A stretch of 64,000 nt of DNA. It comes from Burkholderiales bacterium. GTDB lineage: Bacteria > Pseudomonadota > Gammaproteobacteria > Burkholderiales > JAEUOS01. Location: positions 62,848 through 126,847 of the forward strand of contig JANLTH010000003.1 of the NCBI GenBank assembly GCA_031362865.1. Reading direction: 5' to 3'. The position numbers and the translations under genes are program-made. The notes under the pieces are model-generated. The model searched no databases, was not told where the DNA came from, and worked only from the letters and a program-made list of their open reading frames with translations. Positions 86 to 23,013 of this stretch are shown here, piece by piece (the first letter of the stretch is position 1; every line of letters starts with the position of its first letter).

Positions 86-1126
86 ATGTGTATGAAATCA
101 CAGAAGATCAATCCGCAAACATCGCCACGAATTCGAACTGAGTTTGTCGTCAGCGACGCGTTCGACGCGCACAGCGATGCCGTTTATCATCAAGGGGATT
201 GCCTTGAGTTGATGCGCAACCTACCCGCTCAGAGCATGCAACTGGTGGTTACTTCCCCTCCCTACAATCTTGGGAAAAAGTACGAGAAGCGTAGCGCACT
301 GGACAGCTATCTGTCCTGGCAAGCGGAGGTAATCGCTGAAGCAGTGAGAGTCTTGCGTCCGCAGGGCAGCATCTGCTGGCAAGTGGGGAACTACGTAGAG
401 AACGGCGAAATCGTGCCACTTGACATCGCCTTGTACCCCTTTTTTTCTCAGCACGGTTTGAAGCTGCGCAATCGGATCGTGTGGCATTTTGAGCATGGTC
501 TGCATTGCAGCAATCGCTTGTCTGGTCGTCACGAAACCATTCTTTGGTTCACAAAAACGGATAGCTACACCTTTCACCTGGATCCAATTCGCGTCCCTCA
601 AAAATATCCCGGCAAGAAACACTTCAAAGGCCCCAAGGCTGGGCAGCTTTCGGGAAATCCGCTTGGGAAAAATCCGGGGGATGTCTGGGTGTTTCCGAAC
701 GTGAAAAACAATCATGTTGAAAAGACGGCTCACCCTTGCCAGTTTCCGATTGAATTGGTCGACCGGCTGATTCTTTCTCTCACCGACGAAGGAGATTGGG
801 TGTTGGATCCTTTCGCGGGCGTTGGCACCGCCGTTGCTGCTGCGGTCAGACGGGGACGTCGTGGTGTGGGTGCCGAGAAACTGGCCGAATACGTGGAGAT
901 CGCCCGTCGACGCATCGAGCAAGCAGCGCTAGGAACTCTGCCGGTGCGGCCGATGAATACGCCCGTCTATGACCCCGCCGATGCAGGCAAGAGTCTGACC
1001 ACAAATCCGTGGGCCGCGCTTCAAACTGCACCTCGCCCAAACCACTATGATCACACCACGGTATCCACGCAGTACGCGCTCCTCCAGGATCAAGCGTCAT
1101 ATGACCCCATGCCGGGCCGCGCATAG
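86..1126 (+). CDS. beta-class amino DNA methyltransferase (N4-cytosine or N6-adenine, PF01555-like); modification half of a type II R-M pair
   Basis: 346-aa ORF. Catalytic motif TSPPY (aa 56-60) lies upstream of the SAM-binding motif DPFAGVGT, the permuted order typical of beta-class N4/N6 methyltransferases. SPPY rather than DPPY leans toward N4-cytosine. Confidence 0.9.
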   Translation: MCMKSQKINPQTSPRIRTEFVVSDAFDAHSDAVYHQGDCLELMRNLPAQSMQLVVTSPPYNLGKKYEKRSALDSYLSWQAEVIAEAVRVLRPQGSICWQVGNYVENGEIVPLDIALYPFFSQHGLKLRNRIVWHFEHGLHCSNRLSGRHETILWFTKTDSYTFHLDPIRVPQKYPGKKHFKGPKAGQLSGNPLGKNPGDVWVFPNVKNNHVEKTAHPCQFPIELVDRLILSLTDEGDWVLDPFAGVGTAVAAAVRRGRRGVGAEKLAEYVEIARRRIEQAALGTLPVRPMNTPVYDPADAGKSLTTNPWAALQTAPRPNHYDHTTVSTQYALLQDQASYDPMPGRA

Positions 1127-1156: not shown

Positions 1157-1768
1157 ATGAAGATCGCCAAGACCTATTCGCACTTGAACGGATTGGAGTA
1201 TTTGATCGTTCACAGGAACTCGCTCTGGCGCGAGATTCAGTCGGTCATCGCTTTGATTGACGCTGCCGCTTGCAAGACCAAAGTGAGTCAGGAAATTCGC
1301 ATGAAGGGCCAATTGAAATACAGCCCCATCGACATGAACCGTGCGTTCAACGAAAAGCTGAGTGCCAAAGGCTGGAAAGAGAGCCGGGTGACCTACTGGG
1401 TTACCGAGGACGAGAAACTGATTCGGAGCACGCTTATGCAAAGCGCGAACGAACAAAAACGAGCAATTGAGGAAGCTGGACTGACCGCGATCATGAGCTA
1501 CAACCAAACGGATTTCGTCAAAGAGCGGGTTGCTATCGAGGTCCAGTTTGGCAAATATGCGTTCGTCGCCTACGATCTCTTTGTCAAACACTTGGCTTTC
1601 TACGTGAAGGACCAGATCGACGTGGGAATCGAGATACTCCCGATGAAAGTACTGCAACAGCAGATGTCTTCTGGCCCCGGCTACTACGAAGGCGAACTCT
1701 ACAACGTCATCCGCAACGGTCGTGGAGTTCCGTCAGTGCCGTTGGTCATCATTGGAGTCGCTCCGTAG
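1157..1768 (+). CDS. type II restriction endonuclease, BglII/BstYI-like fold
   Basis: 203-aa ORF begins after a 30-nt gap from the methyltransferase. The segment TDFVKERVAIEVQFGKY gives D-x8-E-x-Q, the same spacing as the recalled BglII catalytic residues D84/E93/Q95. The region is more AT-rich than its surroundings. Confidence 0.7.
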   Translation: MKIAKTYSHLNGLEYLIVHRNSLWREIQSVIALIDAAACKTKVSQEIRMKGQLKYSPIDMNRAFNEKLSAKGWKESRVTYWVTEDEKLIRSTLMQSANEQKRAIEEAGLTAIMSYNQTDFVKERVAIEVQFGKYAFVAYDLFVKHLAFYVKDQIDVGIEILPMKVLQQQMSSGPGYYEGELYNVIRNGRGVPSVPLVIIGVAP

Positions 1769-1798: not shown

Positions 1799-2446
1799 TT
1801 ACCCCGCGCGGCTCTTCCCGATAGGCAGGCTGGAAACCCGAGCCAGCTCTGCCTCTTCAAAGAGTGCCGGGTCGGCGAGCCAGGCGCGCAGCATCGGCAG
1901 CGCGTCAGCACCCCATAAGAGTTCGGTACTACGCAGCCCTTCGAGTGCAAAAGTCGGCACACCGTACACGCCTGCCGCAGCAGCGCCCGCCGTGTTGTCA
2001 ATCAGCCGCTGCTTGACGGCGACCTCGCCGGTTAAGGCATGGCCTGCCGCTGCGTCGGCTACCTCGAGTGCCGCGCAAAACGCATCCCACTCCCCGCCAG
2101 GGTCGCGGCCGTCACGCCAAATAAAATCAAACGCCGCCTCGACCTTCGCTCGCGTGACGGGAGCTGCACAGAGTAGGCGCAGCGCGTGCAGCGGATTGAA
2201 GGGGTGCGCGGGCGGCATCCGAAACGGGATGCCCAACTGCCGCGCGGTGAACACGCAGGCACGATAGGTTTGCACGCGCTTGGCAGGAATCTCCGCCGGG
2301 CCTTTGTGCTCCCAGTGCTTGAGAAGCCCGGCGAACAGCACCGGCACGTACTCAATCTCCAACTCATCGTGCAGCGAACCAAACTGCTTGAGCGCGAGGT
2401 AGGCGTAGGGCGAGATGATGTCGAAGTACCAGCGGGCGTGGCGCAT
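1799..2446 (-). CDS. DsbA-family 2-hydroxychromene-2-carboxylate isomerase-like protein
   Basis: 215-aa ORF. The N-terminus WYFDIISPYAYLA and overall pattern are typical of the HCCA isomerase / DsbA-like thioredoxin family. Confidence 0.7.
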   Translation of the reverse strand: MRHARWYFDIISPYAYLALKQFGSLHDELEIEYVPVLFAGLLKHWEHKGPAEIPAKRVQTYRACVFTARQLGIPFRMPPAHPFNPLHALRLLCAAPVTRAKVEAAFDFIWRDGRDPGGEWDAFCAALEVADAAAGHALTGEVAVKQRLIDNTAGAAAAGVYGVPTFALEGLRSTELLWGADALPMLRAWLADPALFEEAELARVSSLPIGKSRAG

Positions 2447-2476
2447 GGGCGGTCAAGACTTTACGTTGAAAGAAAC

Positions 2477-2893
2477 CTATTTTGCCGCTTGCCGTTTCAA
2501 AAACCGCATCAAACTGCCGAGCACCGGCAATTTCTCATACAACTCTTCTGCCACGTCCCAATAGTCGCGGTGCGAGCTGATGCGTCCGTCGGCGGCGAAT
2601 TGCAGGTGCGTGGTGCCGCGCACTACTTGCGACTTGCCGCGCATCTCGAACAGAAAGTCCCACGTCAGCATCACCTCGCCATTGGCAGCGTGAAAGCGTT
2701 GATGCACTTTGAAACGCGGATTGACCACCTGTTTGAACATGTGGGCGTAAACGTGTTCGACTTTGGCCACGCCGCGCACTTCCTGAAACGGGTCTTTGAA
2801 GAACGCTTCCTCGCTGTAAAACAGCGGCACCTGCGCCACCGTTTGTGGCGTGATGCTTTCGAACCATTGCACGATGTCGTCCATGCTTGTCAT
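2477..2893 (-). CDS. NTF2/SnoaL-like small protein
   Basis: 138-aa ORF with a 4-nt overlap with the upstream SDR gene. Size and pattern match the nuclear-transport-factor-2-like proteins that accompany the CFA-synthase-like cluster. Confidence 0.55.
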   Translation of the reverse strand: MTSMDDIVQWFESITPQTVAQVPLFYSEEAFFKDPFQEVRGVAKVEHVYAHMFKQVVNPRFKVHQRFHAANGEVMLTWDFLFEMRGKSQVVRGTTHLQFAADGRISSHRDYWDVAEELYEKLPVLGSLMRFLKRQAAK

Positions 2894-3666
2894 AGTCCGG
2901 TTCCTTTTTTGATCGCCTTGAAATAGGCGGCATCGGGCAGCAACCCTAGAGCTTTGAGGGTGCGCGTAAAGCGCTTGGGGAAGTGCGTTTCAAACTCGCC
3001 GCGCTCCAATCCCTTGACGATTTCGCCTGCAGCTTCTTCCGCTGACATGAGAGCGGGCATGGCGAAAGTATTCTGCGCCGTGAGCGGCGTTTCCACAAAG
3101 CCGGGGTTGATGACGCTCAAGCCCAAGCCCTTCTCGTGTAAGTCGAGGTATAGCGTTTCGGCCAAGTTGATGAGCGCCGCTTTCGAGGGACCATAGGCCA
3201 GCGCATTGGGCAAGCCGCGATAGCCTGCGACTGAAGCAACGATGGCGATGTGGCCGTGGGCGGCTGCCAGCATGCCGGGCAGCACGGCATCAATCCCGTG
3301 CAAGACACCGGTGAAATTGACCGCGAAGTGATGGTTGATGACGGCCAGGTCAAACTGGTCAGCACGCAGGGGCGAATACGTGCCCGCGCACAGAATCGCC
3401 AAATCGAGCCCGCCCCAAGCCTGCGCGATTTGCGCGTGGGCGGCGCGCTGCGCCCCGGGGTCGGTTACATCGAGCGGCAGGGCCAGCGCGTGCGCGTGGC
3501 CAGCAATCAACCCGGTCAACTTGTCGGCACTGCGGGCTGAAACGGCGACGCGCGCACCGCGCGCCAGCAGCAGCTTGGCGGTGGCAGCCCCAATGCCAGT
3601 CGAAGCACCGACCACCCAAACGCGCAAATCGCGCCAATCACTGAACTTGGGATTGAGCGCCATCAA
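2890..3666 (-). CDS. short-chain dehydrogenase/reductase (SDR)
   Basis: 258 aa. N-terminal Rossmann motif VVGASTGIGAATA, and a YGPSKAA segment containing the catalytic YxxxK. Confidence 0.85.
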   Translation of the reverse strand: MMALNPKFSDWRDLRVWVVGASTGIGAATAKLLLARGARVAVSARSADKLTGLIAGHAHALALPLDVTDPGAQRAAHAQIAQAWGGLDLAILCAGTYSPLRADQFDLAVINHHFAVNFTGVLHGIDAVLPGMLAAAHGHIAIVASVAGYRGLPNALAYGPSKAALINLAETLYLDLHEKGLGLSVINPGFVETPLTAQNTFAMPALMSAEEAAGEIVKGLERGEFETHFPKRFTRTLKALGLLPDAAYFKAIKKGTGL

Positions 3667-4217
3667 CTCGCGGAACGCTTTTTAAACGACAGAGTCACAG
3701 CACCCAGATACACACCAAACTTGCGCATTTCAGCGCGGTTGAGCATCACCTGGTCGTCCATGAGAAACATCCAGTCGTTGAACTGTACGTCGTACACTTT
3801 GCCATCCACCGGCAGGCGCAGGGTGTACTCCCATTGCAGCGCATTGCCAGAAATGCGCCCAATCGCTTCACCCACTACGTCGTCGGCACGGCCGATATAG
3901 CTGCCATCGGCGCGGCGTTGCAGGTTCCACACGCGCTTTTGCTTGGTGCCGTCTGAGTACGTGAAGTCTTCGTCGAGCACCCCTAAATCGCCGCGCCACG
4001 AGCAGCGCATCACCACCGTGAAGCGCTTGACCACCTTGCCAGACCGGTCCTGAAACACGCCCCAAGCATCGAGCGTGCCGTTGAAATAGGTACGCAAGTC
4101 GAGCACTGGCTGCTCGGCGGCGTAGTGGGCCAAGTCTGAAGTCGCACCGCAACCTGCGAGCACGAGTGCTCCAAGAGCCGCGCCAGTAAATCGTCTTCGG
4201 CCTATCGAATTTTCCAT
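3663..4217 (-). CDS. DUF3833-type lipocalin-like lipoprotein
   Basis: Only the last 184 codons of track ORF 3663..5036 are plausible. ATG at 4217, lipobox LVLAGC, then the pattern LDLRTYFNG..W.GVFQDRSGKV typical of DUF3833. Confidence 0.75.
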   Translation of the reverse strand: MENSIGRRRFTGAALGALVLAGCGATSDLAHYAAEQPVLDLRTYFNGTLDAWGVFQDRSGKVVKRFTVVMRCSWRGDLGVLDEDFTYSDGTKQKRVWNLQRRADGSYIGRADDVVGEAIGRISGNALQWEYTLRLPVDGKVYDVQFNDWMFLMDDQVMLNRAEMRKFGVYLGAVTLSFKKRSAS

Positions 4218-5494
4218 AACAAACCTCCTGCAATCAGTTTGAGACCACACGGCACCAGACAGTAGAGCACCGCCAATGCCACGCCTCCTGAGACGTTGGC
4301 GGTCGGCGTGAGGTTCCCCGGCACATATCCTGCCAGGCTCAGAATGGGCAAGGTCAAGCCAGCGGCAAAAGCCAGATTGGCCTTCGTCACCAAATTCCAG
4401 ATACCGAAATAAGCGCCCTCCGCACCCTGGTGATTGGCTTTTGCGATGGTATCGGCCAGCATTGAGGGCGCGATTGCCAAATCTGCCGCCACCGCCACGC
4501 CGGACAAAGCGCAGATCAGCATAAAGGCGGCCACCACTTGCGGTGTTTCGCTGGTGAGAAAAAACGCCCACACAAAAACCGCAATCGCCAAACCCATTGA
4601 AAGCAACCAGGCCACACGCTTGGACCAGCGCGCCGCCACCCGCAGCCATAGCGGCAAGGCAAGCGCGCCGCACAAAAAATAGACTGCCAGGAATGCGCCC
4701 TGCCACTGTGGTAGCCGCAACCGGTCGCTTACAAAAAAGAGCAGCAAGGTCGCTGGAATGGCGGCTGCGATGCCATTGATCGCAAACACGGCAACTAAAC
4801 GTCGGAAGGCGGGGTTTTGCAGTGGTCGCACGTCGCTGACTTTGGCCACGCAGGCTTTGGAGGTAATGGCTCCACCGCCACTGGCTATGCCGGAACCCAG
4901 GAACACCGCGCCCAGCGCCAGTGCGGCGGCCGCACCCACCCACGCGGTCAGCGCCATGCCTTGGGCCAAGTCGGTGTGCAGCTGCGGCAGCAGCGCAGCC
5001 ACGATCACGCCGACGAATACGAAGCCTTCGCGCCACGCCGTGTAGCGGGTGCGCTCGTGATGCGGGTCCGGATCAGGGGCCAGCACTGCACCCAGCGCCT
5101 GATGCGGAATCGTCACGCACGAGAGGCCCAGGGTCGCCACCACCACCGTCAGCGCCAGCCAGGCGGCCGATGAAATGCCCAACACTTGGCTCCAGGCTGG
5201 ATGCAGCAGCGCCAAGAGGCCGAGCGCGAGCGTCAGCAGCCCGGTTGCCATGAGCGGTACACGTCGCGCACCGTCCGCCCGATCAGCAATGCGGCCAATC
5301 CACGGGTCGAGCATCGCATCCAACGCGCGCGAGGCTAAGAGGATGCCGCCGGTCAGCCCCAATGCCACGCCAACGCTTTCGGCATACAGTTTTGGCACAT
5401 AGACGTAAACCGGCAGTGCCGCAAAAGCGAGCGGAAAGCCCAGCGAGCCATACAGGATGAGACGACCAGTGTTGGCGCGCGCAGCAGCGGTCAT
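4202..5494 (-). CDS. MFS transporter (GPH-like)
   Basis: 430-aa highly hydrophobic ORF with about 12 predicted TM segments. It sits in the position of the MFS gene in the conserved CFA-like cluster. Confidence 0.8.
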   Translation of the reverse strand: MTAAARANTGRLILYGSLGFPLAFAALPVYVYVPKLYAESVGVALGLTGGILLASRALDAMLDPWIGRIADRADGARRVPLMATGLLTLALGLLALLHPAWSQVLGISSAAWLALTVVVATLGLSCVTIPHQALGAVLAPDPDPHHERTRYTAWREGFVFVGVIVAALLPQLHTDLAQGMALTAWVGAAAALALGAVFLGSGIASGGGAITSKACVAKVSDVRPLQNPAFRRLVAVFAINGIAAAIPATLLLFFVSDRLRLPQWQGAFLAVYFLCGALALPLWLRVAARWSKRVAWLLSMGLAIAVFVWAFFLTSETPQVVAAFMLICALSGVAVAADLAIAPSMLADTIAKANHQGAEGAYFGIWNLVTKANLAFAAGLTLPILSLAGYVPGNLTPTANVSGGVALAVLYCLVPCGLKLIAGGLLWKIR

Positions 5495-5506
5495 TCCGGC
5501 CCTAAA

Positions 5507-6841
5507 TCAGGCGTGGGCCAGCGTGAATTGGACTACGTCGGTTGACCTTGCGCGAAACGCGCCTTCGCAGTAGGCCAGATAGAACTCCCAGGTGCGCATG
5601 AAGCGCTGGTCGAACGCCGCCATTTGGTTGGCCGGTTGCAAAGCGCCCACCGCGTCGCGCTGCTCCAGAAAAGCCTTGCGCCAGCGCCGCAGGGTTTCGG
5701 CGTAGTCCAGCCCAAACGCGTGCTCGCTAGCGACCCGCAAACCGGCACGGGCTGCATAGGCACGGAACACTTCGGGTGAAGGCAGCATGCCACCGGGGAA
5801 GATGAATTGCTGAATGAAATCAGTGCCGGTGCGGTACTGCGCAAACAACTCGTCGGCAATCGTAATAGTTTGCACTACGGCCCGCCCGCCGGGTTTCAGG
5901 CAGCGCTTCAGGCACTGAAAATAGTCAGGCCAGTAGGCTTCGCCCACCGCTTCAAACATTTCAATCGAGGCGATGCCATCAAATTGGGTGTTGAGGTCGC
6001 GATAGTCGGTGAGCGTCAGGTGCGCGCGTTCAGCAAAGGCATCAAGCCGTTGATTCGCGTAGGCCAATTGCTCGCAAGCGAGCGTGACACCAGTCACCCG
6101 GGCTTGCGGTTGTTCCAGCGCAACTTGCGCAAAGCCGCCCCAGCCGCAGCCGATTTCGAGAATGTCCGCGCCGTTTTGCAGTTGCAATTCGTGCAGCACG
6201 CGCTGGTACTTGGCACGCTGCGCCGCTTCGAGCGAGAGCGCGAAATCGCCGTCAAACAGCGCGCTGGAATAGGTCATCGATGGGTCGAGCATGAGCGCAT
6301 AGAAATCATTGCCCAAGTCGTAATGGGCGTGGATGTTTTTCTGCGCCTGCGGCTTTGAATTGCGCTTGAGCCAATGCTTGATCCGGTAGACCAATTGCCC
6401 CAGCCACGAGCCATACACCGCGCGCTCAAGCAGGTGGCGGTTTTGTGCCAATAGAGCAATCAGAGCCGGCAGATCGTCCGCCGTCTCATCGGCCGACCAA
6501 AAGCCCTCGATAAAGCACTCGGCAAAGCCGATGTCGCCGCCACGCAGCGCGCGCGCGAACACCTGCCAGTCGTTGATCGTCAGGGTTGCATGCAGCGCAT
6601 CGGGTGCTACCGCGCCTACAAAAGTGCGGGTGCTGCCGCCCGGCAGATGCACGGTCAACGTGCCGACTTCGAGGCGAGTGAGCAAGCGCAATACCACCTT
6701 CGCAGCCCAAGGCGCTGGCGCATAGCCCGCGCCCTGGGGAGCCGCTGGGCTGGGGGTAACAAACGGCTGCGCAAGCAGAGGGGACAACTGCGAGTGGATC
6801 AATTGGGGAATAAGCGAGCAGCGCATGAAATGGGAACTCAA
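5507..6841 (-). CDS. cyclopropane-fatty-acyl-phospholipid synthase-like SAM-dependent methyltransferase
   Basis: SAM motif ILEIGCGWGGFA plus the CFA-synthase family pattern (HYDLGNDFY, MTYSSALF). The track start at 6841 is TTG; an ATG at 6826 is an alternative start. Confidence 0.85.
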   Translation of the reverse strand: MSSHFMRCSLIPQLIHSQLSPLLAQPFVTPSPAAPQGAGYAPAPWAAKVVLRLLTRLEVGTLTVHLPGGSTRTFVGAVAPDALHATLTINDWQVFARALRGGDIGFAECFIEGFWSADETADDLPALIALLAQNRHLLERAVYGSWLGQLVYRIKHWLKRNSKPQAQKNIHAHYDLGNDFYALMLDPSMTYSSALFDGDFALSLEAAQRAKYQRVLHELQLQNGADILEIGCGWGGFAQVALEQPQARVTGVTLACEQLAYANQRLDAFAERAHLTLTDYRDLNTQFDGIASIEMFEAVGEAYWPDYFQCLKRCLKPGGRAVVQTITIADELFAQYRTGTDFIQQFIFPGGMLPSPEVFRAYAARAGLRVASEHAFGLDYAETLRRWRKAFLEQRDAVGALQPANQMAAFDQRFMRTWEFYLAYCEGAFRARSTDVVQFTLAHA

Positions 6842-7659
6842 AGCGAACGGGTGACGAAGTCGGCGGGTGGGGCAGGTTTACGAAAGAAGGGCACGCGCTT
6901 TAACCATAGTCGCAGCGCCTGCCAGTGGATTCGCGCCATCACGCCTACAGTGAAAAACGGAAAGCGCAGCAGGGTGCGCGCCAAGTTTGTCGCCGTGACG
7001 CCAACCGAACGCCCCGAGACGCAAGTGTCGATCAAGCGCCCTGCTGCGTCGGCAAAGTTGATGCGCGCCACGACCTGCTGCGCGCCTTCGCGCCGGGCGG
7101 CCAGAAAGCGGAATTGGTATTCGCCTTCCACACGCGCAAACGGCGACACGTGAAACACTTTGCGCGCAATCATTGGCGCACCCGGCAGCAAAGCGCCGCC
7201 ATCCGGCTGGGCGATCAGGTAGCAGTGCCGCTCACCGAAGGTATTGTTCACCTCGACCACGATGGCGCGAGTCGTACCGTCAGCTCGCTCACAAAACCAG
7301 AAACTGACCGGGTTGAACACGTAGCCTAAGACCCGTGGAAATGTCTGCAGCCACACTTCTCCTTCGGCATCGGCAATGCCGTGCTCGCGCAACAGCCGGG
7401 CGATCCAATCGGTAGGCGAGCCTCCGTCACCATGGTCGGCAAAATGAAAGCTGAGCGGCGCGGCGCGGTTCACGCCCAGCCAGCGCGGCGCAGCACGATC
7501 CAGGGCTTTCAAGCCTGAAAGCGGAAAGCGCAGAAAGAATACCGAGTAGACAAATTTGTGTGCCGTCGGGCGCACCCGCGCATGCATTACTTGGCCTAAG
7601 AACAGCCATGGCGGCGGTTCTTCACGGCATATTGGCGCAACAAGCGCATCAGGCGGCAT
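6838..7659 (-). CDS. DUF1365 family protein
   Basis: 273 aa. The pattern G.V.H.R..P..H.F.Y.VF and its position between the FAD oxidoreductase and the CFA-like methyltransferase match the conserved DUF1365 arrangement. Confidence 0.8.
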   Translation of the reverse strand: MPPDALVAPICREEPPPWLFLGQVMHARVRPTAHKFVYSVFFLRFPLSGLKALDRAAPRWLGVNRAAPLSFHFADHGDGGSPTDWIARLLREHGIADAEGEVWLQTFPRVLGYVFNPVSFWFCERADGTTRAIVVEVNNTFGERHCYLIAQPDGGALLPGAPMIARKVFHVSPFARVEGEYQFRFLAARREGAQQVVARINFADAAGRLIDTCVSGRSVGVTATNLARTLLRFPFFTVGVMARIHWQALRLWLKRVPFFRKPAPPADFVTRSL

Positions 7660-8989
7660 TCTTCAGCCTTGGTTCTGAGAGAGAGTTTGCCAATGCCGCA
7701 ATCGCGTGGGCGACGTGCAAGCCCGATTTGAGGCCATCTTCATGAAAGCCATAGCCAGTCCACGCGCCAGCGAACCAGAGCCGATCTGTGCCTTGAATCT
7801 GCGGTACGCGTGCCTGTGCGGCAATCGCAGCTGCATTGAACACCGGGTGCGCGTACTCGATGGATTGCAAAATTGTCTCGGTCCGCGGCGACGTAAGTGG
7901 ATTGAGCGTCACCATCAGCGGCGTACTAAATGGAAGCGGCTGTAGCTTATTGAGCAAATAGCTCACGGCCACCGGGCGCTTGCTGCTGCCAATCGCACCG
8001 GGCTTGCCAGAGTTACCCAAAAAATTCCACGCCGCCCAGGCACGGCGACGCGCGGGCAGTTGGGCGATGTCGGTATGCAATACGGCGTGATTAGTTTGGT
8101 AGGGGACGGCCGCGAGCACGCTGCGCTCGGCCGAGGTCGGCGCCTCCAGCAAGGCGAGCGCCTGGTCGCTATGGCAGGCAAACACGACTTGATCAAAATG
8201 CTCGATGCCGCGTGCGGTGACCAGATTGACCCCGGCTGCGGCGCGGCTGACCCGCGTGACCCCGGCGCTGGTCCGCACCGCGCACCCGGGCTGAGTGCGG
8301 ATCGCGTCGGCGAGCTTTTCCACATACTGCCGCGCGCCACCCGCAACGGTCATCCACTGCGGGCGGTCGGCTACTTGCAACAGGCCGTGATTCAAACAAA
8401 AGCGCGTAAACGTGGCCACTGGAAAGTCCAGCATTTCGGCCGTGGGGCAGGACCAAATCGCGGCCCCCATCGGCAGCAAATACCAGTCGCGAAAAGTTTG
8501 GCTATAACGGTTTGCGTCGAGATAATCGCCCAGGCTTTGAGAAGCCGAGGCAGCCTCGCCGTGCTGCCCCGCCAAGGCACTGGCCTCACGATTAAAGCGC
8601 ACAATCTCTTGCACCATACGCCAAAACGCCGGGCGCGCCAGGTTGCGACTTTGCGCAAACAGAGTGGCCAAGTTCGAGCCGGCCCATTCGAGGGTCGGCA
8701 CGCCGCCCGTGTCACGCAGGCTCACTGAAAAAGTCATTTCTGACTTGGCAGTCGGCACGCCCAGCTCGTCAAACAGGCGTACCAAATTCGGGTAGGTACG
8801 ATGATTGAACACCAGAAAGCCGGTATCCACCGGGTGGGTGATGCCATCCACCATGGCCTCGACCGTGTGGGTATGCCCACCCAGGCGCGTGTCGGCTTCG
8901 AGCAGGCTCACGCGCAACCCCGGCGCACGCGCCAGCTGCCACGCGCACGCAAGGCCAGAAATTCCAGCACCGATGACAGCAATGTTCAT
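7649..8989 (-). CDS. NAD(P)/FAD-dependent oxidoreductase (amine-oxidase-like)
   Basis: Dinucleotide-binding N-terminus MNIAVIGAGISGLACAW. ATG at 8989 is preferred over the upstream track start at 9046. Confidence 0.85.
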   Translation of the reverse strand: MNIAVIGAGISGLACAWQLARAPGLRVSLLEADTRLGGHTHTVEAMVDGITHPVDTGFLVFNHRTYPNLVRLFDELGVPTAKSEMTFSVSLRDTGGVPTLEWAGSNLATLFAQSRNLARPAFWRMVQEIVRFNREASALAGQHGEAASASQSLGDYLDANRYSQTFRDWYLLPMGAAIWSCPTAEMLDFPVATFTRFCLNHGLLQVADRPQWMTVAGGARQYVEKLADAIRTQPGCAVRTSAGVTRVSRAAAGVNLVTARGIEHFDQVVFACHSDQALALLEAPTSAERSVLAAVPYQTNHAVLHTDIAQLPARRRAWAAWNFLGNSGKPGAIGSSKRPVAVSYLLNKLQPLPFSTPLMVTLNPLTSPRTETILQSIEYAHPVFNAAAIAAQARVPQIQGTDRLWFAGAWTGYGFHEDGLKSGLHVAHAIAALANSLSEPRLKNAA

Positions 8990-9029
8990 GGAAGTTTTAC
9001 GAAAATGGAACTGGCTCGGATGCATGAAC

Positions 9030-9195
9030 CTGGTGTGGTGTTGCACGCTGTTTGCGGCTTATAAAAATGATGGATTTTTCGTCGAATCGAGGTGCAAAGC
9101 ACAGTCATAGTTCCACTATGACGAGCATTTGCAACGACGAGTCGGCGTAAAAGACGCATTTTTAAGTCGCATTAAGTGAGCAACGCTAAACTAGG
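9030..9195. repeat. 166-bp imperfect palindromic intergenic element, copy A
   Basis: Reverse-complement match, roughly 9 of 10 positions by eye, to 54226..54391. It is internally self-complementary with a central hairpin GTCATAGT-TCC-ACTATGAC. Confidence 0.85.
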
Positions 9196-9257
9196 GCAAG
9201 CAACGGCAGGATTTACACATTCCTTAGAGCAAGGGGGGAGGATCCGCCCAAAGGAAA

Positions 9258-10082
9258 CTACCTGCCGCTACTTGCCTGGGCCAGCGCGCTCGCGCGGTCA
9301 CGCTTGTCATGTTCAATCACCGCATAGGCGGAATGGTTGTGGATCGATTCAAAATTTTCCGACGAGACGGTGTAAGCGGCTATGCGCTCTTCAGCATTGA
9401 GCGCCACTGCGATGTCGCGCACCAAATCCTCGACAAATTTGGGGTTGTCGTAAGCACGTTCAGTCACCCATTTTTCGTCGGGGCGCTTGAGAATGCCGAA
9501 CAGTTCACACGAGGCGGCGCGCTCGGCGATTTGAATCAATTCGAGCACCGGCAAGGGCGCTGCCACCAGCACGCGAATCACGACCCTCGAGCGCTGGTTG
9601 TGCGCGCCGTAGTCAGAAATTTCTTTCGAGCACGGGCACAAGCTGGTGACCGGCACCGCAACTTCAATCGTGTATTCCACCGCGCTGTCAGCTTGTTTTT
9701 TCTCGCGCGTCAGCACCACATCCACATCCATCAAGCTTGCCACACCCGACACGGGCGCGTGCTTGGTGTAGAAGTAAGGGAATTTGAGCGAAAGCAGGCC
9801 GGTTGAAGCCTCCAGCTTGCTCAGCATGCGCTCAAACAGGTCGGCGAACGACTGCGTGTCGATCTCGTTGCCATGGCTATGCATCAGCTCCACGAACCGC
9901 GACATGTGCGTGCCTTTTTGGATGGCAGCCAATCCGACTGCCATATCAACCAGCGCCACCGTGGCGACACCGGAGCCGTCCATCGAGCGCATTTTGATCG
10001 GGTGGCGCATGGCCCTGATGCCAACGCGGTTGATCGCGATTTGGCGGGTATCCAACGCGGATTGCATATCGGGTAGAGTCAA
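9258..10082 (-). CDS. folE2: GTP cyclohydrolase I type 2 (FolE2)
   Basis: 274 aa. DVQ/D.R...I..VGI N-terminal pattern, KGTHMSRF motif and CPCSKEIS cysteine pair are typical of FolE2/MptA. Confidence 0.85.
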   Translation of the reverse strand: MTLPDMQSALDTRQIAINRVGIRAMRHPIKMRSMDGSGVATVALVDMAVGLAAIQKGTHMSRFVELMHSHGNEIDTQSFADLFERMLSKLEASTGLLSLKFPYFYTKHAPVSGVASLMDVDVVLTREKKQADSAVEYTIEVAVPVTSLCPCSKEISDYGAHNQRSRVVIRVLVAAPLPVLELIQIAERAASCELFGILKRPDEKWVTERAYDNPKFVEDLVRDIAVALNAEERIAAYTVSSENFESIHNHSAYAVIEHDKRDRASALAQASSGR

Positions 10083-10156
10083 GCGGAACCTGTTGGCGAA
10101 AAGGAGTACGGTTTACGGACGGTCAGACTGAGATGTTGGCTGAGGAAAATCATATT

Positions 10157-10169
10157 TTGTCCTAGACAA
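10157..10169. promoter_or_regulatory. candidate operator, inverted repeat TTGTC-CTA-GACAA (site 1)
   Basis: Exact 13-mer TTGTCCTAGACAA in the AT-rich divergent region between folE2 and the MerR/B12 regulator. An identical copy lies 96 bp away. Confidence 0.5.
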
Positions 10170-10252
10170 TTAAGCCACGTCTCAAAGATATAGTCTATTC
10201 TGTAGAAAATCAACCCCTATAACGCATTTTTTTGATACATTCATTCTTAATA

Positions 10253-10265
10253 TTGTCCTAGACAA
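10253..10265. promoter_or_regulatory. candidate operator, inverted repeat TTGTC-CTA-GACAA (site 2)
   Basis: Second exact copy of TTGTCCTAGACAA. It overlaps a possible -35 (TAGACA) that has a TTCAAT -10-like hexamer 17 nt downstream. Confidence 0.5.
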
Positions 10266-10316
10266 AATACTTGGTTTAAGGTTCAATAGCATTTTTGCCG
10301 TGGAATTGAAGTCCCC

Positions 10317-11315
10317 GTGACTCTCCAACCCGTTTCCGCTTCCGTGGGCACTGCAAGGTCGGCTGACGCTGGCACTTTTGTCGGCATCAGCGCGGTTGAG
10401 CGCGACACCGGGCTTTCCAAAGACACGCTGCGGGTCTGGGAGCGCCGCTACGGCTTTCCGCAGCCGCATCGCGACGCTGCAGGCGAGCGCCTCTACCCAC
10501 CAGTGCAGATTGATACGCTGCGGCTGATCAAGCGCCTGATGGATCGCGGCATGCGCCCCGGCAAAGTGATCGGGCGACCGCTGGAAGAGTTGCTCGCGCT
10601 CGGGCAAACCGACCCAAAGCCCGCTCTCGCCTCCGCCGCTCTGTTCTCGGCGAGAAGTGCCGGAGCGGCAAGCCTGACGAGCTATCTTGACTTGTTGCGG
10701 GCCCACGCGGTGGAAGATTTGCGCCGCTCCCTGTCGCAAGCACTGCTGCGCCACGGTGTCGCCGATTTTGTGATTGGCACGGTGGCTCCGCTCACACAAA
10801 TGATTGGCGACGCCTGGATGAGCGGGCGGCTGGCGATTTATGAAGAGCACCTCTTTACCGAAACTGTGCAATCCGTGTTGCGCCATGCGATTGCCGCGCT
10901 GCCAAGCGCGATTCACACCGCGCCTGCATCACGCCCGCATGTGTTGCTGACCACGTTTCCGGACGAACAGCACGGCTTGGGCTTGCTGATGGTGGAAGCT
11001 TTGCTCACACTCGAAGGCGCGCGCTGTGTCTCGCTGGGTACTGCGACACCATTGGACGAGATTGCGCGCGCCGCGCAGTCACATGGTTGCGATATTGTCG
11101 CGCTGTCGTTTTCGCAAGCCTACCCCGCCACTCAATTGGCCGACGGCCTGCGCGAGTTGCGCGCCAACCTGCCTGCTGGCACTGAAATTTGGGCGGGCGG
11201 CGCGGGTTCGGCCCTGCAGAAAAAGCCGCCGGAGCAAGTCCGCATCATCGGTGCGCTCAGTGCGGTGCACGCGGCCGTTGCCGAGTGGCGCACGCTACGT
11301 TTGCCGGCGGCGTGA
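10317..11315 (+). CDS. MerR-family regulator with C-terminal B12-binding domain (LitR/CarH type photoregulator candidate)
   Basis: N-terminal MerR HTH (ISAVERDTGLSKDTLRVWERRYGFP). The C-terminal Rossmann-like domain carries the cobalamin signature ExHxxG (EQHGLG), followed by ALSFS and WAGGAG. GTG start. Confidence 0.8.
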   Translation: MTLQPVSASVGTARSADAGTFVGISAVERDTGLSKDTLRVWERRYGFPQPHRDAAGERLYPPVQIDTLRLIKRLMDRGMRPGKVIGRPLEELLALGQTDPKPALASAALFSARSAGAASLTSYLDLLRAHAVEDLRRSLSQALLRHGVADFVIGTVAPLTQMIGDAWMSGRLAIYEEHLFTETVQSVLRHAIAALPSAIHTAPASRPHVLLTTFPDEQHGLGLLMVEALLTLEGARCVSLGTATPLDEIARAAQSHGCDIVALSFSQAYPATQLADGLRELRANLPAGTEIWAGGAGSALQKKPPEQVRIIGALSAVHAAVAEWRTLRLPAA

Positions 11316-11515
11316 GTAATCTGCCGGTCCGGCCTACGCAGTCTGCGAGCACCGGGTTTCGTGGCATCAAAGCCAATTTGCCCTCCAAACCCTGCCTGGT
11401 CTGCGGCCGCGCGATGACTTGGCGGCGCGCCTGGGCAAAAAATTGGGAGGCCGTCAAATATTGTTCAGAGCGCTGTCGTGCCGCCAAGCCTGCGGCAGGC
11501 AGAACCTCGCCATGA
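11312..11515 (+). CDS. DUF2256 zinc-ribbon protein
   Basis: CLVCGRAMTWRRAWAKNWEAVKYCSERC matches the DUF2256 CxxC...CxxxC pattern. The proposed GTG start overlaps the regulator stop (GTGA), and the stop overlaps the photolyase ATG (ATGA). The start is uncertain. Confidence 0.6.
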   Translation: MSNLPVRPTQSASTGFRGIKANLPSKPCLVCGRAMTWRRAWAKNWEAVKYCSERCRAAKPAAGRTSP

Positions 11516-13047
11516 CTCGGAACCTGATACTTGTATTAGGCGATCAACTCAATCGCGACAGCAGGGCCTTCCAGCAGCTCGATGCCACCCAGGATTGCGT
11601 GCTGATGATCGAGCGGCGCTCTGAGAGCCAACAAGTGTGGTGCCACAAGGCGCGCAGCACGCTGTTTCTGGCGGCGATGCGCCACTTTGCCGCCGAGTTG
11701 CGCCAACACCGCCTGCCGCTTGACTATGTGATGCTCGAAGAGGCAATCACAGAGCCATTCTTCACGATGCTTGCCCGAAAAATCAAGCACCACGCGCCGG
11801 ACCGGGTGGTGGTGTGCGAGCCCGGCGAATATCGGATGCTGGCCGGCACTCAAGACACCTGCGCCGCCGCTGGGGTGCCGCTCACGGTGTTGCCCGATAC
11901 CCATTTCTTGTGCTCCCGCGAGGAATTCGCGGCGTGGGCGGGCGACAAAAAACGATTGCTGATGGAAGCTTTCTACCGCCAGATGCGCCGCAAAACCGGC
12001 GTGTTAATGATCGATGGCGAGCCTGTGGGTGGCAGCTGGAATTACGACAAGGAAAACCGCAAAGCCTACCCGCGCACTGGCCCCGGTGAAATCGCGCCTG
12101 CCGCCCGCTTCACGCCCGATGCCACCACTCGCGAGGTGATGGCGCTGGTGGAAACCCACTTGCCCGATCACCCTGGGTCGCTGGCCGACTTCGCCTGGCC
12201 CGTGACCCGCGCCCAAGCGCTGCACGCACTCGACCAATTTGTCAGCACGCGCTTAGGCCACTTTGGCGACTATCAGGACGCGATGTGGGCTGGCGAGCCG
12301 TTTGGCTGGCATGCGCTGCTCTCGCCTGCGATGAATTTGAAGCTCATCAGCCCGCGCGAGGTGATTGATGCGGCGTTGGCCGCTTACCACCGGGATCGGC
12401 TGCCATTGGCGAGTGTCGAAGGCTTTGTGCGGCAGGTGCTGGGCTGGCGCGAATTCATTCGCGGGGTGTATTGGCTCGACGCTCCGCTGATGCGTGAAGC
12501 CAATCACTTCGGCCATCAACGCGCCCTGCCCGCCTGGTATTGGAACGGCAAAACCCAGATGAATTGCATGAAAGAGAGCATTGGGCAAACCTTGCAATAC
12601 GGTTTCGCGCATCACATTCAGCGCTTGATGGTGACTGGCAACTTCGCCCTGCTCGCACAGCTGAATCCGCAGCAAGTGGAAGACTGGTATTTGGCGGTGT
12701 ATGTCGATGCGGTTGAGTGGGTTGAATTGCCCAATACCGCCGGCATGGCGCTCTATGCGACTGGCCCGCGCTTTACCTCCAAGCCCTACATCGCCTCGGG
12801 CGCTTACATCAAACGCATGAGCAACTATTGCAGCGGCTGCCGCTATCAGCCACAGGTGCGCACTGGCCCAAAAGCCTGCCCGATGACCACGCTGTACTGG
12901 AATTTTCTCGACACCCACGAAGCGGCGCTGTTCAAAAATATGCGCACCGTGCTGATGGCAAAAAGCGTGCAGCGCTTGAGCGGTGACGAGCGCGCGGCAA
13001 TCCGCTTGCATGCCGCGCACGTACTTAATAATCTTGACTCTCTATAA
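11512..13047 (+). CDS. cryptochrome/photolyase-family protein of the FeS-BCP (PhrB/CryB-like, (6-4) photolyase) group
   Basis: Starts MTRNLILVLGDQLN. Four Cys spaced C-x87-C-x2-C-x12-C (NCMKES ... YCSGCRYQPQVRTGPKACP), the same spacing as the recalled 4Fe-4S ligands C350/C438/C441/C454 of A. tumefaciens PhrB. Confidence 0.85.
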   Translation: MTRNLILVLGDQLNRDSRAFQQLDATQDCVLMIERRSESQQVWCHKARSTLFLAAMRHFAAELRQHRLPLDYVMLEEAITEPFFTMLARKIKHHAPDRVVVCEPGEYRMLAGTQDTCAAAGVPLTVLPDTHFLCSREEFAAWAGDKKRLLMEAFYRQMRRKTGVLMIDGEPVGGSWNYDKENRKAYPRTGPGEIAPAARFTPDATTREVMALVETHLPDHPGSLADFAWPVTRAQALHALDQFVSTRLGHFGDYQDAMWAGEPFGWHALLSPAMNLKLISPREVIDAALAAYHRDRLPLASVEGFVRQVLGWREFIRGVYWLDAPLMREANHFGHQRALPAWYWNGKTQMNCMKESIGQTLQYGFAHHIQRLMVTGNFALLAQLNPQQVEDWYLAVYVDAVEWVELPNTAGMALYATGPRFTSKPYIASGAYIKRMSNYCSGCRYQPQVRTGPKACPMTTLYWNFLDTHEAALFKNMRTVLMAKSVQRLSGDERAAIRLHAAHVLNNLDSL

Positions 13048-13075
13048 TCGCCAGCTTAGCCGTGAAGGAAATGTG

Positions 13076-13942
13076 ATGCTCTACCCTGAACTGTTCAAAT
13101 CGCTTGAAGCGGTGCGCTGGAACATGGCCACCGACGTGCCGTGGGACTCGTTTGATGCGTCCCAATTGACTGACGAGCAGGCGCAAACGATCAAGATGAA
13201 CGCGATCACCGAGTGGTCGGCCTTGCCCGCCACCGAAATGTTCTTGCGTGACAACCTGGACGACAGTGACTTTTCGGCCTTCATGTCGATCTGGTTTTTT
13301 GAAGAACAGAAGCACTCTCTAGTGCTGCTCGAATATCTGCGCCGCTTCAAACCGGCAATGCTGCCCACCGAGGCCGAGTTGCACAATGTGCGTTTCACCT
13401 TCGACCCGGCCCCCGCGATGGAAACGCTGATGCTGCATTTTTGTGGCGAGATTCGCTTGAACCACTGGTATCGCCGTGCCTCTGAATGGCATACCGAGCC
13501 GGTGATCAAAAAAATCTACGACCTGATTTCGCGCGATGAAGCGCGCCATGGCGGGGCTTACCTGCAATACATGAAGCGCGCGATCGGCAATTTTGGCGAC
13601 TCAGCCCGCGCCGCCTTTGCCAAGGTAGGCGTGTTGATGGCCTCCGCCAACCGCACCGCTCAGGCGCTGCACCCGACCAATTTGCACGTGAACGAGTCGA
13701 TGTTTCCGCATGACACGGTGCAGTCAAAACTGCCCGACCCTTCGTGGCTTGAACGCTGGCTCGACACGCAAATCAAGTTTGACCGCGAATGGGAAACCAA
13801 GGTAGTCAAACGTATCTTGCACAACATGGAAATTTTGTTTGAGTGCAGCTTTGACTCGGTGCAAGACTTGAACCGTTACCGCAAAGAAGTCATTAAGCAA
13901 TTGAATGCCTCACTTGCGGCGAGTGCGCCGGTGGCGGGTTAG
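13076..13942 (+). CDS. ferritin-like diiron-carboxylate protein (acyl-ACP-desaturase-like)
   Basis: Two ExxH motifs (FEEQKHS and RDEARHG), each preceded by a distal Glu (PATEMF, FCGEIR), give the E...ExxH x2 diiron signature. ATG at 13076 follows GAAGGA. Confidence 0.7.
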   Translation: MLYPELFKSLEAVRWNMATDVPWDSFDASQLTDEQAQTIKMNAITEWSALPATEMFLRDNLDDSDFSAFMSIWFFEEQKHSLVLLEYLRRFKPAMLPTEAELHNVRFTFDPAPAMETLMLHFCGEIRLNHWYRRASEWHTEPVIKKIYDLISRDEARHGGAYLQYMKRAIGNFGDSARAAFAKVGVLMASANRTAQALHPTNLHVNESMFPHDTVQSKLPDPSWLERWLDTQIKFDREWETKVVKRILHNMEILFECSFDSVQDLNRYRKEVIKQLNASLAASAPVAG

Positions 13943-13964
13943 CACGCTTAGGGTCAGCAAGCTC

Positions 13965-14450
13965 GTGTCAGCCCCGTCGTTTGAAGCCAAGCTGGTAGCA
14001 CGCGAGGGCGCTGCGGCTCGTGCGGCCTTGCTGCCACGCCCCTTGGTATTTACCAATGGCGTGTTCGACCTCCTACATCGCGGCCACGCCACCTATCTGG
14101 CGCAAGCCCGTACCCGTGGCGCAAGCCTGGTCGTTGCACTCAATACCGACGCTTCGGCGCGCCGCTTGGGCAAAGGCCCAGAGCGCCCCCTGAACAACGA
14201 GGCGGATCGCGCAGCACTGATTGCCGCGCTCGGCGCGGTGGATTTGGTGACGTGGTTTGACGAAGACACGCCCCAAAACTTGATTGCAGAAATCAAGCCC
14301 GACATTCTCATCAAAGGCGGCGACTACGACATGACCAAGTTGCCCGAAACCGCTCTGGTACAAAGCTGGGGCGGCGTGGCTTTGGCGATTCCATTCATTC
14401 ATCAGCGCTCGACCACCGCGCTGGTGAACAAGGTGCGCAGCGTATGTTGA
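13965..14450 (+). CDS. D-glycero-beta-D-manno-heptose 1-phosphate adenylyltransferase (RfaE domain II / HldC-like cytidylyltransferase)
   Basis: LVFTNGVFDLLHRGHATYL nucleotidyltransferase HxGH motif and the KGGDY segment. GTG start at 13965 was chosen by analogy; the track ATG at 13905 would overlap the upstream gene by 38 nt. Confidence 0.8.
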   Translation: MSAPSFEAKLVAREGAAARAALLPRPLVFTNGVFDLLHRGHATYLAQARTRGASLVVALNTDASARRLGKGPERPLNNEADRAALIAALGAVDLVTWFDEDTPQNLIAEIKPDILIKGGDYDMTKLPETALVQSWGGVALAIPFIHQRSTTALVNKVRSVC

Positions 14451-14809
14451 TTGAGCGCTGGCCGTCGAGTGGCCGAGGGCGCAGCCGCACCTCCGCTTAC
14501 GGCGAATTGGTGTGGACGGTCGAGACGGCCCGCAACCCGGCTGCCGACTTCGCGGCGCAAACCGCCGACGTGTTGGCGTTGCTCGATACCTCACTCAGCG
14601 AAGCGGGCTCTGATCGGCAGCGCATGCTATCGGTTCAGGTGCTACTCACTGATATCGGCAATCGCCCCGCTTTTGATGCGCAATGGTGTGAGTGGCTGGG
14701 CGATGATCCACAAGGGTGGCCGCAACGCGCCGTTTCAGAAGCCAAACTGGCTCCCGGTTTGCTGCTTGAAGTTGTCGTGACGGCCGCACGCTTGCCGGGG
14801 ATGAGGTGA
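14444..14809 (+). CDS. RidA/YjgF-family protein
   Basis: 121 aa. Size and C-terminal pattern (LLEVVVTAA) are consistent with the endoribonuclease L-PSP/RidA fold. Overlaps both neighbours by a few nt. Confidence 0.65.
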   Translation: MLIERWPSSGRGRSRTSAYGELVWTVETARNPAADFAAQTADVLALLDTSLSEAGSDRQRMLSVQVLLTDIGNRPAFDAQWCEWLGDDPQGWPQRAVSEAKLAPGLLLEVVVTAARLPGMR

Positions 14810-15615
14810 GCAACGCCGCGCCGTCGATCTTCGCCATCGGCGACGTGCAGGGCTGCCAAAACGCGCACCTGCGCTTGCTCGACAAGATTCATCGCATCGC
14901 CACCGCGCCACGCCTGTGGTATGTCGGCGATTTGGTCAATCGCGGTGAAGATTCTGCGGGCGTGCTGCGCACCATCAAAGCGATGGGTGATGCCGCCGTG
15001 GCAGTGCTGGGCAACCACGATTTGCACCTGCTCGCGGTGGCGCGAGGCTTAGCCAAACAGAAGGCGGGCGACACCATGGACAGCGTGCTGCAAGCGCCGG
15101 ATCGCGATGAATTGCTGCACTGGCTACAGCGCCGACCGCTCGTGTACAGCGAAGCCGGTCAGCTGTTGGTTCACGCCGGGCTGCCACCGCAATGGACGGC
15201 GCAACAGGCGGCGTTCTTGGGTGGTGAAGTCACTGCCGTACTTGCTGATGAAGCGCGCGCCGCAGATTTTTTCGCGGGGATGTATGGCAACGAACCGTCC
15301 CGCTGGGACGATACTCTGCAAGGCCAAGCGCGCTTGCGCTTTATCGTCAACGCCTGCACCCGGCTGCGCTATTGCAATGCCGATGGCACGCTCGATTTTT
15401 TGAGTAAGGAACAAGCCACGCCGCGCGGCTATCAAGCGTGGTTTGACATGCCCGAACGCGCGAGCCGCGATACTTCCATCGTGTTTGGGCATTGGGCAGC
15501 GCTGGGCTTGGTGCAACGGCCCGGGCTGACCGGCTGCGACACCGGCTGCGTGTGGGGGCGGCAATTGACGGCGGTTAATCTTGCCAGCGGCGAAGTGCTT
15601 CAGGTCGATGCCTGA
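14806..15615 (+). CDS. apaH: symmetrical bis(5'-nucleosyl)-tetraphosphatase
   Basis: Metallophosphatase motifs IGDVQGC, GDLVNRG and GNHD, with ApaH-length (269 aa). Confidence 0.9.
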   Translation: MSNAAPSIFAIGDVQGCQNAHLRLLDKIHRIATAPRLWYVGDLVNRGEDSAGVLRTIKAMGDAAVAVLGNHDLHLLAVARGLAKQKAGDTMDSVLQAPDRDELLHWLQRRPLVYSEAGQLLVHAGLPPQWTAQQAAFLGGEVTAVLADEARAADFFAGMYGNEPSRWDDTLQGQARLRFIVNACTRLRYCNADGTLDFLSKEQATPRGYQAWFDMPERASRDTSIVFGHWAALGLVQRPGLTGCDTGCVWGRQLTAVNLASGEVLQVDA

Positions 15616-15647
15616 AGACGCTTATCCCATCAGGCTTTTCAGGTGCA

Positions 15648-22765: not shown

Positions 22766-23013
22766 CCCCGTATAGGCCAACCGAAATTCATTTTGAGGCA
22801 GTGACCGTGACAGTAGGCCGCATTTTCTGCTCGCACAAGACGCTAGGAGCCTGTCGGACTTAAGTGAATCGGAGATGGTAACAAAGCGAGACGCCGAAGC
22901 CGCTGATTTGGTGGCCGCCGAATCTTGCAGTTCCCTTGACAATAGACCAACTGGCAGAGATAATTAAATACCAACCGGTATGTATGTAACGTGAGCGTAT
23001 AGCCAAACCTACA

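Follow-up and report, generated by a model that had tools for sequence, protein, structure and literature searches.

In Rhodobacter sphaeroides, UfaM methylates cis-vaccenate, the flavin adenine dinucleotide (FAD) oxidoreductase UfaD (RSP1091) desaturates the methylated product, and the DUF1365 protein UfaO (RSP1090) inserts O2 to give the furan ring; the resulting furan fatty acids are consumed by singlet oxygen and protect cells, and RSP1089 (similar to cyclopropane fatty acid [CFA] synthase), RSP1088 and RSP1087 (a short-chain dehydrogenase/reductase [SDR]) are dispensable for their formation (PMC7380195). A related set of genes is controlled in Pseudomonas by LitR-family repressors, which act on phrB, an SDR gene, an FAD oxidoreductase gene, ufaM, cryB and folE through a partner protein with a light-oxygen-voltage (LOV) domain (PMC9758184). 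Here we describe a cluster of such genes in a 64-kb stretch of a Burkholderiales genome (contig JANLTH010000003.1 of assembly GCA_031362865.1; below, the window), at the center of which stands a B12-type regulator of the CarH/LitR kind. We think that the cluster is probably a Burkholderiales light-response regulon under a CarH/LitR-type photoreceptor-repressor that uses adenosylcobalamin (AdoCbl). A preliminary description of the window had pointed to both a link between the lipid genes and the sigmaE-ChrR singlet-oxygen regulon of R. sphaeroides and the LitR-dependent induction of phr, cfa and folE-type genes; the former is borne out for the operon RSP1091-1087 (PMC7380195) and the latter for Pseudomonas phrB, ufaM and folE (PMC9758184).

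Genes were called from six-frame open reading frames (ORFs) and from Pfam and NCBIfam scans, and each gene call, motif and junction of the preliminary description was recovered in the sequence. The cluster is arranged around a 234-bp region that separates folE2 from the divergent regulator gene, here called litR, and that contains two copies of one palindrome:

10317-11315, plus strand: litR, LitR/CarH-type MerR regulator of 332 amino acids (Pfam MerR_1, B12-binding_2 and B12-binding)
10253-10265: operator B, palindrome TTGTCCTAGACAA, located 51 nt before the GTG start codon of litR
10157-10169: operator A, identical palindrome TTGTCCTAGACAA, located 74 nt before the start of folE2
9258-10082, minus strand: folE2, GTP cyclohydrolase FolE2, first gene leftward (Pfam GCHY-1, E=5e-87)

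The FolE2 assignment also passes NCBIfam NF010200 (265 bits; cutoff, 215), and its TTG start codon at 10082 is backed by the N terminus of the closest homologue.

Judged by its domains and motifs, the product of 10317-11315 is a full-length regulator of the CarH/LitR type, and its B12-binding, light-sensing domain is complete. The alignment with Thermus thermophilus CarH (TtCarH; 5C8D, E=3e-25) extends over the whole protein. In 16 aligned homologues (identity 50-69%), the recognition-helix motif RxWERRY (R39-V-W-E-R-R-Y45), the four-helix-bundle motif Wx9EH (G164-DA-W167 and E177-H178, with W167, E177 and H178 aligned to TtCarH W131, E141 and H142) and the Rossmann B12 motif (E217-Q-H219-GL-G222, x41, S264-F-S266, x27, G294-G295) are all invariant, the SxS element having Ser where the consensus D/ExHx2G-x41-SxT/V-x22-27-GG takes Thr or Val. 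RxWERRY, Wx9EH and the Rossmann motif are used to set genuine CarH photoreceptors apart from paralogues that work without B12 (PMC9304148). Of the light-response signature GxxW, EH, GxxH and GxxxP (SignatureFinder; PMC11796333), three of four elements are present, as GDAW, EH and GTATP. The preliminary description had read EQHGLG as ExHxxG and had placed a cobalamin-motif LitR/CarH-type protein at the hub of the cluster; the motif is there as E217-x-H219-x-x-G222, and its position at the hub of a conserved photoprotection cluster is supported. G234, which we take to be the equivalent of TtCarH G192, is conserved in the regulator. The group to which the protein belongs is large and betaproteobacterial, with more than 8000 database matches, many of which are labeled “light-induced transcriptional regulator” by JGI.

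Operators A and B are separated by 96 bp, which is about 9 helical turns, and no other exact TGTC-N3-GACA site occurs in the 64 kb. We surveyed 80 species-representative loci that were retrieved via the regulator; in 73 of them the 450 nt that precede litR contain the palindrome, the family-wide consensus of which is TTTGTC-YWR-GACAAA. Exact sites number 86 in the 37.8 kb upstream of litR versus 9 in the other 1205 kb, an enrichment of ~305-fold. The spacing of neighboring operators, taken over the 600 nt that precede litR in loci L001 to L080, peaks at 62-64 bp, or six helical turns (28 of 45 pairs), and the 96-bp spacing was found again in three loci; such phasing suggests binding to the same face of the DNA and possible DNA looping. 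The closest relative (L081), a metagenomic contig whose regulator is 69% identical and whose folE2/litR/photolyase layout is shared, keeps both palindromes and their 96-bp spacing while the flanks diverge. A block 3′ of operator B, AAGGTTCAAT, is also conserved in that relative, and it could possibly hold a −35 TAGACA/−10 TTCAAT arrangement, although the promoter scan gave no hit there. The operator half-site contains the TnnACA element of characterized CarH operators. The conservation of these sites between the divergent genes adds new, sequence-level support for control of both sides by the regulator.

Leftward of folE2 lies the lipid operon, which is separated from it by a gap of 268 bp when the ATG at 8989 is taken as the start of the ufaD-like gene. 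The features on this side are as follows:

9032-9195: palindromic repeat of ~164 bp, resembling miniature inverted-repeat transposable elements (MITEs) or repetitive extragenic palindromes (REPs), between folE2 and the ufaD-like gene
7649-8989, minus strand: UfaD-like FAD-dependent oxidoreductase (Pfam Amino_oxidase and NAD_binding_8)
6838-7659, minus strand: UfaO-like DUF1365 protein (Pfam DUF1365, E=2e-77)
5507-6826, minus strand: CFA-synthase-like S-adenosylmethionine methyltransferase (Pfam CMAS, E=2e-79)
4202-5494, minus strand: MFS_2 (GPH-like) transporter of the major facilitator superfamily (MFS) (Pfam MFS_2, E=8e-49), found in 52/80 loci
3663-4217, minus strand: DUF3833 lipoprotein (Pfam DUF3833, E=1e-68), found in 48/80 loci
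2890-3663, minus strand: SDR (Pfam adh_short, E=3e-40), found in 49/80 loci
2477-2893, minus strand: SnoaL/NTF2-like protein, with which the conserved part of the leftward operon ends (Pfam SnoaL_2, E=8e-13), found in 43/80 loci
1799-2446, minus strand: DsbA-like protein (Pfam DSBA, E=2e-23), codirectional, 30 nt after the NTF2 gene

The successive junctions from the FAD oxidoreductase gene through the NTF2 gene are −11, +11, +12, −16, −1 and −4 nt, followed by +30 nt between the NTF2 and DsbA-like genes. The DUF3833 gene has an ATG start codon with a good ribosome-binding site, and its product carries the lipobox LVLAGC (LAGC).

We compared the window proteins by tblastn with the same 80 species-level loci, 65 of which count as informative because 3 kb or more of sequence is available upstream. 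The operon of FAD-oxidoreductase, DUF1365, CFA-like, MFS, DUF3833, SDR and NTF2 genes runs divergently from litR at 63 of these 65, so that the co-occurrence of regulator and module, for which the preliminary description had suggested a comparative check, does recur. The folE2 gene stands between litR and ufaD in 39/80 loci, and its distance from ufaD, which is usually −4 to 35 nt, implies that it was ancestrally in the ufaD transcription unit; where folE2 is missing, ufaD is directly divergent from litR and the operators lie between them. The genes 3′ of litR are mixed: about 20 loci have DUF2256 (which follows litR in 19/80 loci) and the photolyase there, 13 have the diiron gene, Alicycliphilus has a cyclobutane pyrimidine dimer photolyase, and other loci have unrelated genes. 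Because they vary in this way, the lipid operon is the constant partner of litR. Beyond these loci, plasmid pAZKH of Azoarcus sp. KH32C has a matching layout, in which a B12-type regulator of 51% identity is accompanied by two operators. On a Burkholderia anthina plasmid (NZ_CP071828.1, 204672-223430; L086), an FAD-oxidoreductase/DUF1365/CFA core with DUF2256 and GTP cyclohydrolase I genes adjoins a gene pair for an extracytoplasmic function (ECF) sigma factor and its anti-sigma factor, together with a second sigma-70-family gene, and these take the place of the B12-type LitR; the output module has evidently been rewired to different sensors. Chance colocalization of the cluster genes is ruled out by the synteny and the operator statistics. 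The DsbA-like gene, which had been put forward as a possible member, has a counterpart beside the module in 0/80 loci; it is lineage specific and falls outside the conserved module.

The chemistry of the seven-gene lipid module had been called unknown, and because the roles of UfaD, UfaO and UfaM have been worked out (Lemke 2020; PMC7380195), that statement is outdated for the core, while it stands for the MFS, DUF3833, SDR and NTF2 genes. A UfaD-type FAD oxidoreductase gene followed by a UfaO-type DUF1365 gene, overlapping by 11 nt in one operon, is a match at the level of Pfam families. The CFA-like methylase falls under the NCBIfam Cfa equivalog cutoff (256 versus 400), and its gene comes third, after ufaD-ufaO, as do R. 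palustris ufaM and R. sphaeroides RSP1089; the enzyme could be either of the UfaM type (RSP2144/RPA2569) or of the RSP1089 type. The SDR gene corresponds in position to RSP1087. We read the MFS, DUF3833, SDR and NTF2 genes as conserved accessories of the lipid operon.

Rightward, litR is followed by these genes:

11312-11515, plus strand: DUF2256, small zinc-ribbon-like protein with CxxC...CxxxC (Pfam DUF2256, E=5e-20)
11512-13047, plus strand: (6-4) photolyase of the CryB/PhrB type, of the iron-sulfur bacterial cryptochrome and photolyase (FeS-BCP) family (Pfam DPRP, E=2e-75)
13076-13942, plus strand: ferritin-like diiron protein (acyl-ACP desaturase/R2lox-like) with two ExxH motifs
13905-14450, plus strand: RfaE-domain-II-like adenylyltransferase, doubtful member (TIGR02199, 182.2 bits against a cutoff of 181.5)

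The DUF2256 gene is translationally coupled on both sides, its start overlapping the litR stop codon as GTGA and its stop overlapping the photolyase start codon as ATGA. The photolyase is similar over its whole length to CryB (3ZXS, E=2e-140) and PhrB (4DJA, E=2e-136), and its four Fe-S cysteines are aligned with theirs.

We propose that, in the dark, the regulator would load AdoCbl, oligomerize and occupy both palindromes, possibly bridging them, and would act as a repressor rather than as an activator. It would in this state shut down its own operon, that is, litR, DUF2256, the FeS-BCP photolyase gene and probably on into the diiron gene, and also the leftward unit headed by folE2, from which read-through would extend into ufaD. 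UV, blue or green light would then photolyze the Co-C bond, the oligomer would break up and come off the DNA, and both units would be transcribed. The output would comprise photorepair of (6-4) lesions by the photolyase, extra pterin and folate precursors from FolE2 and furan fatty acids in the membrane phospholipids, made by the UfaD-like, UfaO-like and CFA-like enzymes, which would scavenge singlet oxygen.

Several observations weigh against such a regulon, and we set them out together with the other explanations that we considered. No sigma-70-like promoter passed the scan of the divergent region, and scans for promoters and terminators over 8900-10400, 1500-2700 and 12900-16100 gave nothing usable. 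The operators are palindromes and not tandem 11-bp direct repeats (nnnnTnnACAn), with which they have only the TnnACA core in common. The 268-bp gap, searched at up to 2 mismatches, holds no operator. The repeat at 9032-9195, a 92%-identical copy of which lies at 54226-54391 in the opposite orientation, is self-complementary, has terminal inverted repeats (CTAGYGTAGKGTTGCAC...) and gave no Rfam match. Its insertion explains the length of the gap, the strong fold of the gap RNA (z=−3.4) and a central hairpin at 9104-9122 that the scan marked as a terminator-like structure on the strand of the operon (minus). The preliminary description was right about the length of the gap; most of it is a repeat-element insertion and not a native regulatory spacer. 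Since the gap holds this repeat and no operator, the coupling of the lipid genes to LitR depends here on read-through, and it is weaker in this genome than in most relatives, which is the main local uncertainty. Control might consequently be divided, such that LitR governs its own operon and folE2 whereas the furan-lipid operon (8989 to 2477) has a separate promoter in or after the repeat and is otherwise regulated or constitutive. Besides the lack of an operator, the strong folding of the inserted palindromic element and the hairpin with its T-rich tail, this explanation can draw on four relatives with long gaps (L012, L038, L051 and L069), all of which have an extra operator before ufaD and so show that selection can add one where coupling is lost. 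However, the T-tract that follows the hairpin is poor, the scans found neither a sigma-70-like nor a sigmaE-type promoter in the gap, and the relatives argue for a single unit, given that ufaD is directly divergent from litR at loci without folE2 and that the gap is −4 to 35 nt at most loci with it. We therefore consider divided control unlikely, though it deserves to be kept in mind.

The sensor also departs from TtCarH, with M168 after the Trp where TtCarH has His132 and with Q218 and A243 in place of the Arg176-Asp201 dimer salt bridge, which bears on the oligomeric state. At the GxxH position of the light-response signature, which is variable in the family, the regulator has D-E-Q-H and lacks the glycine that touches B12 via its backbone (PMC11796333). 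It misses the cutoff of the NCBIfam CarH equivalog NF052513 (122 versus 400 bits), an Rfam search of the whole window returned no hits, and so no cobalamin riboswitch, and genes for making or importing cobalamin were likewise not identified in the window. (The window's sole hint of a B12-uptake component is a TroA-like periplasmic binding protein at 21935-22942, minus strand, with a weak BtuF match of 36 bits, far under the cutoff.) The nonconserved TtCarH residues and the missed cutoff would fit a regulator that is no direct photoreceptor and that binds cobalamin but reports B12 status or redox, or needs a partner photoreceptor, so that light dependence would be indirect or absent; LitR classes II and III do sense by other means, and class II requires a short LOV protein (PMC9758184). 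Yet class II lacks the Rossmann B12 module, whereas the regulator has both modules with all AdoCbl-contacting motifs invariant, no LOV, BLUF or PAS gene is present among the scanned ORFs of the window, and the constant partners of the regulator are photoprotection genes. All of this makes an indirect sensor quite improbable. A sigmaE-ChrR-type ECF pair elsewhere could also be the main driver of the cluster, as in Rhodobacter, Shewanella and Vibrio, with LitR as a local modulator, and the lipid core is indeed under sigmaE-ChrR in R. sphaeroides and beside an ECF sigma/anti-sigma pair in B. anthina. We hold this to be very improbable: the cluster contains no TGATC-N15-18-CGTA promoter (the sole match in the window, at 36289, is at chance level), litR and its operators are invariant neighbors of the module in this lineage, and, as the preliminary description had stated, the window shows no ECF sigma or anti-sigma gene, none being present among ~65 Pfam-scanned ORFs, with small ORFs not covered exhaustively.

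Set beside the class I CarH/LitR regulators (T. thermophilus CarH, Bacillus megaterium LitR and Myxococcus CarH), the system is alike in the architecture of MerR winged helix-turn-helix, four-helix bundle and Rossmann B12 domain, in the proposed autoregulation, in having photoprotection genes as neighbors and in the TnnACA half-site. It differs in that class I targets carotenoid genes, whereas the genes here are those for furan fatty acids, photolyase and FolE2, and in that the operators of TtCarH and BmCarH are three or four tandem 11-bp direct repeats, whereas those here are 13- to 15-bp palindromes that mostly come in pairs spaced by 62-64 bp (96 bp in this genome); the lack of equivalents of TtCarH H132 and R176/D201 and the score under the NCBIfam CarH cutoff also set the regulator apart. 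The class II LitR proteins of Pseudomonas (PplR/PmlR) have a near-identical output set and are MerR-family repressors with operators that overlap promoters, as is proposed here, but they have the four-helix bundle only, show no B12 binding and lose their activity through a LOV partner when the latter is illuminated (PMC9758184). Their site is TGTACA-N12-TGTACA, and against this the protein here has a complete sensor domain and no LOV gene among the scanned ORFs.

The R. sphaeroides operon RSP1091-1087 has a matching order of FAD oxidoreductase, DUF1365, CFA-like, small protein and SDR genes, and a photolyase is coregulated there too. The signal in that organism is singlet oxygen, acting through the ECF pair and a TGATCC-N16-CGTA promoter, neither of which was found here among the scanned ORFs or in the promoter search, and the cluster here adds MFS, NTF2 and folE2 genes. 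The clusters of Burkholderia that are linked to class III LitR-LitS and ECF sigma factors (Sumi 2018, cited in PMC9758184; B. anthina plasmid) belong to the same bacterial order and share the lipid core together with DUF2256 and GTP cyclohydrolase genes. The C terminus of class III LitR has no B12 domain and control runs via an ECF sigma factor, whereas the protein here is of the B12 type and is proposed to act directly.

We found no paper on a B12-type LitR wired to a furan-lipid cluster in Betaproteobacteria, several key papers lying outside the literature searched. The cluster represents a new wiring and a new operator design within the known LitR/CarH kind, with known parts rewired, and not a new class of mechanism. 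If the proposal holds, one photoprotective output module (furan fatty acids, photolyase and pterin) has been plugged into at least four sensors, namely, sigmaE-ChrR, LOV with class II LitR, class III LitR-LitS and the direct B12 photoreceptor proposed here, and B12 availability would be tied to light tolerance in abundant freshwater bacteria. The same layout occurs in Azoarcus sp. KH32C, Piscinibacterium candidicorallinum and Polynucleobacter, which are cultivable systems suited to the study of B12 and light control of furan lipids, of the plasticity of CarH operators and oligomers and of the roles of the MFS, DUF3833, SDR and NTF2 proteins.

A wider reading can be offered tentatively, its parts being, when taken all together, possible but rather doubtful. 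The regulators would form a Burkholderiales/Rhodocyclales subfamily of B12 photoreceptors with furan-lipid remodeling, and not carotenoids, as the near-invariant primary target. The AdoCbl-dependent oligomer would bridge palindrome pairs phased by 6 (or 9) turns and so loop the divergent promoters. Many freshwater members would scavenge B12, such that vitamin supply would gate photoprotection, and the conserved diiron protein would be a lipid oxidase or desaturase that the pathway still lacks.

The diiron protein itself gives weak FA_desaturase_2 and AurF matches. Its predicted model is of low confidence (pLDDT 59), and the fold matches of this model, to R2lox, to acyl-ACP desaturases including stearoyl-ACP desaturase and to ribonucleotide reductase R2 (E of ~1e-3, TM of 0.4-0.5), support only the designation “ferritin-like diiron.” Family members are 74-87% identical across Burkholderiales, with values of 78-87% in one comparison, and are annotated as ferritin, acyl-ACP desaturase or hypothetical protein. 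The gene adjoins the module in 44/80 loci, and the family also occurs away from LitR and furan clusters (L087 and L088); in Burkholderia sp. FXe9 the gene comes after one for a membrane fatty acid desaturase. This occurrence elsewhere weakens the idea of a dedicated member of the furan pathway; of the earlier listing of the diiron gene as a rightward member, its presence (13076-13942) stands, while its membership in the regulon is uncertain. It is probably cotranscribed with the litR operon, and the rightward unit probably runs past 13942 into the RfaE-II-like nucleotidyltransferase gene, a RidA-like gene and ApaH. The RfaE-II-like gene follows the diiron gene in 35/80 loci and is likely a housekeeping neighbor; the RidA-like gene and ApaH, downstream of 14450, are housekeeping genes.

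The remainder of the window is taken up by housekeeping genes (his operon, tyrS, clp, tat and phaC). A TetR-family regulator fused to DUF1428 and, nearby, a separate DUF1428 gene lie at 23014-24024 and 25662-26015 among AHSA1/SRPBCC and glyoxalase-like small genes, with no connection to the LitR cluster. At the edge of the cluster, convergent with the DsbA-like gene, stands a BglII-like restriction-modification pair consisting of an N6_N4 DNA methylase (86-1126, plus strand) and a BglII-type endonuclease (1157-1768, plus strand); it sits in a stretch of lower GC content (0.54 versus about 0.60) and is probably an acquired island.

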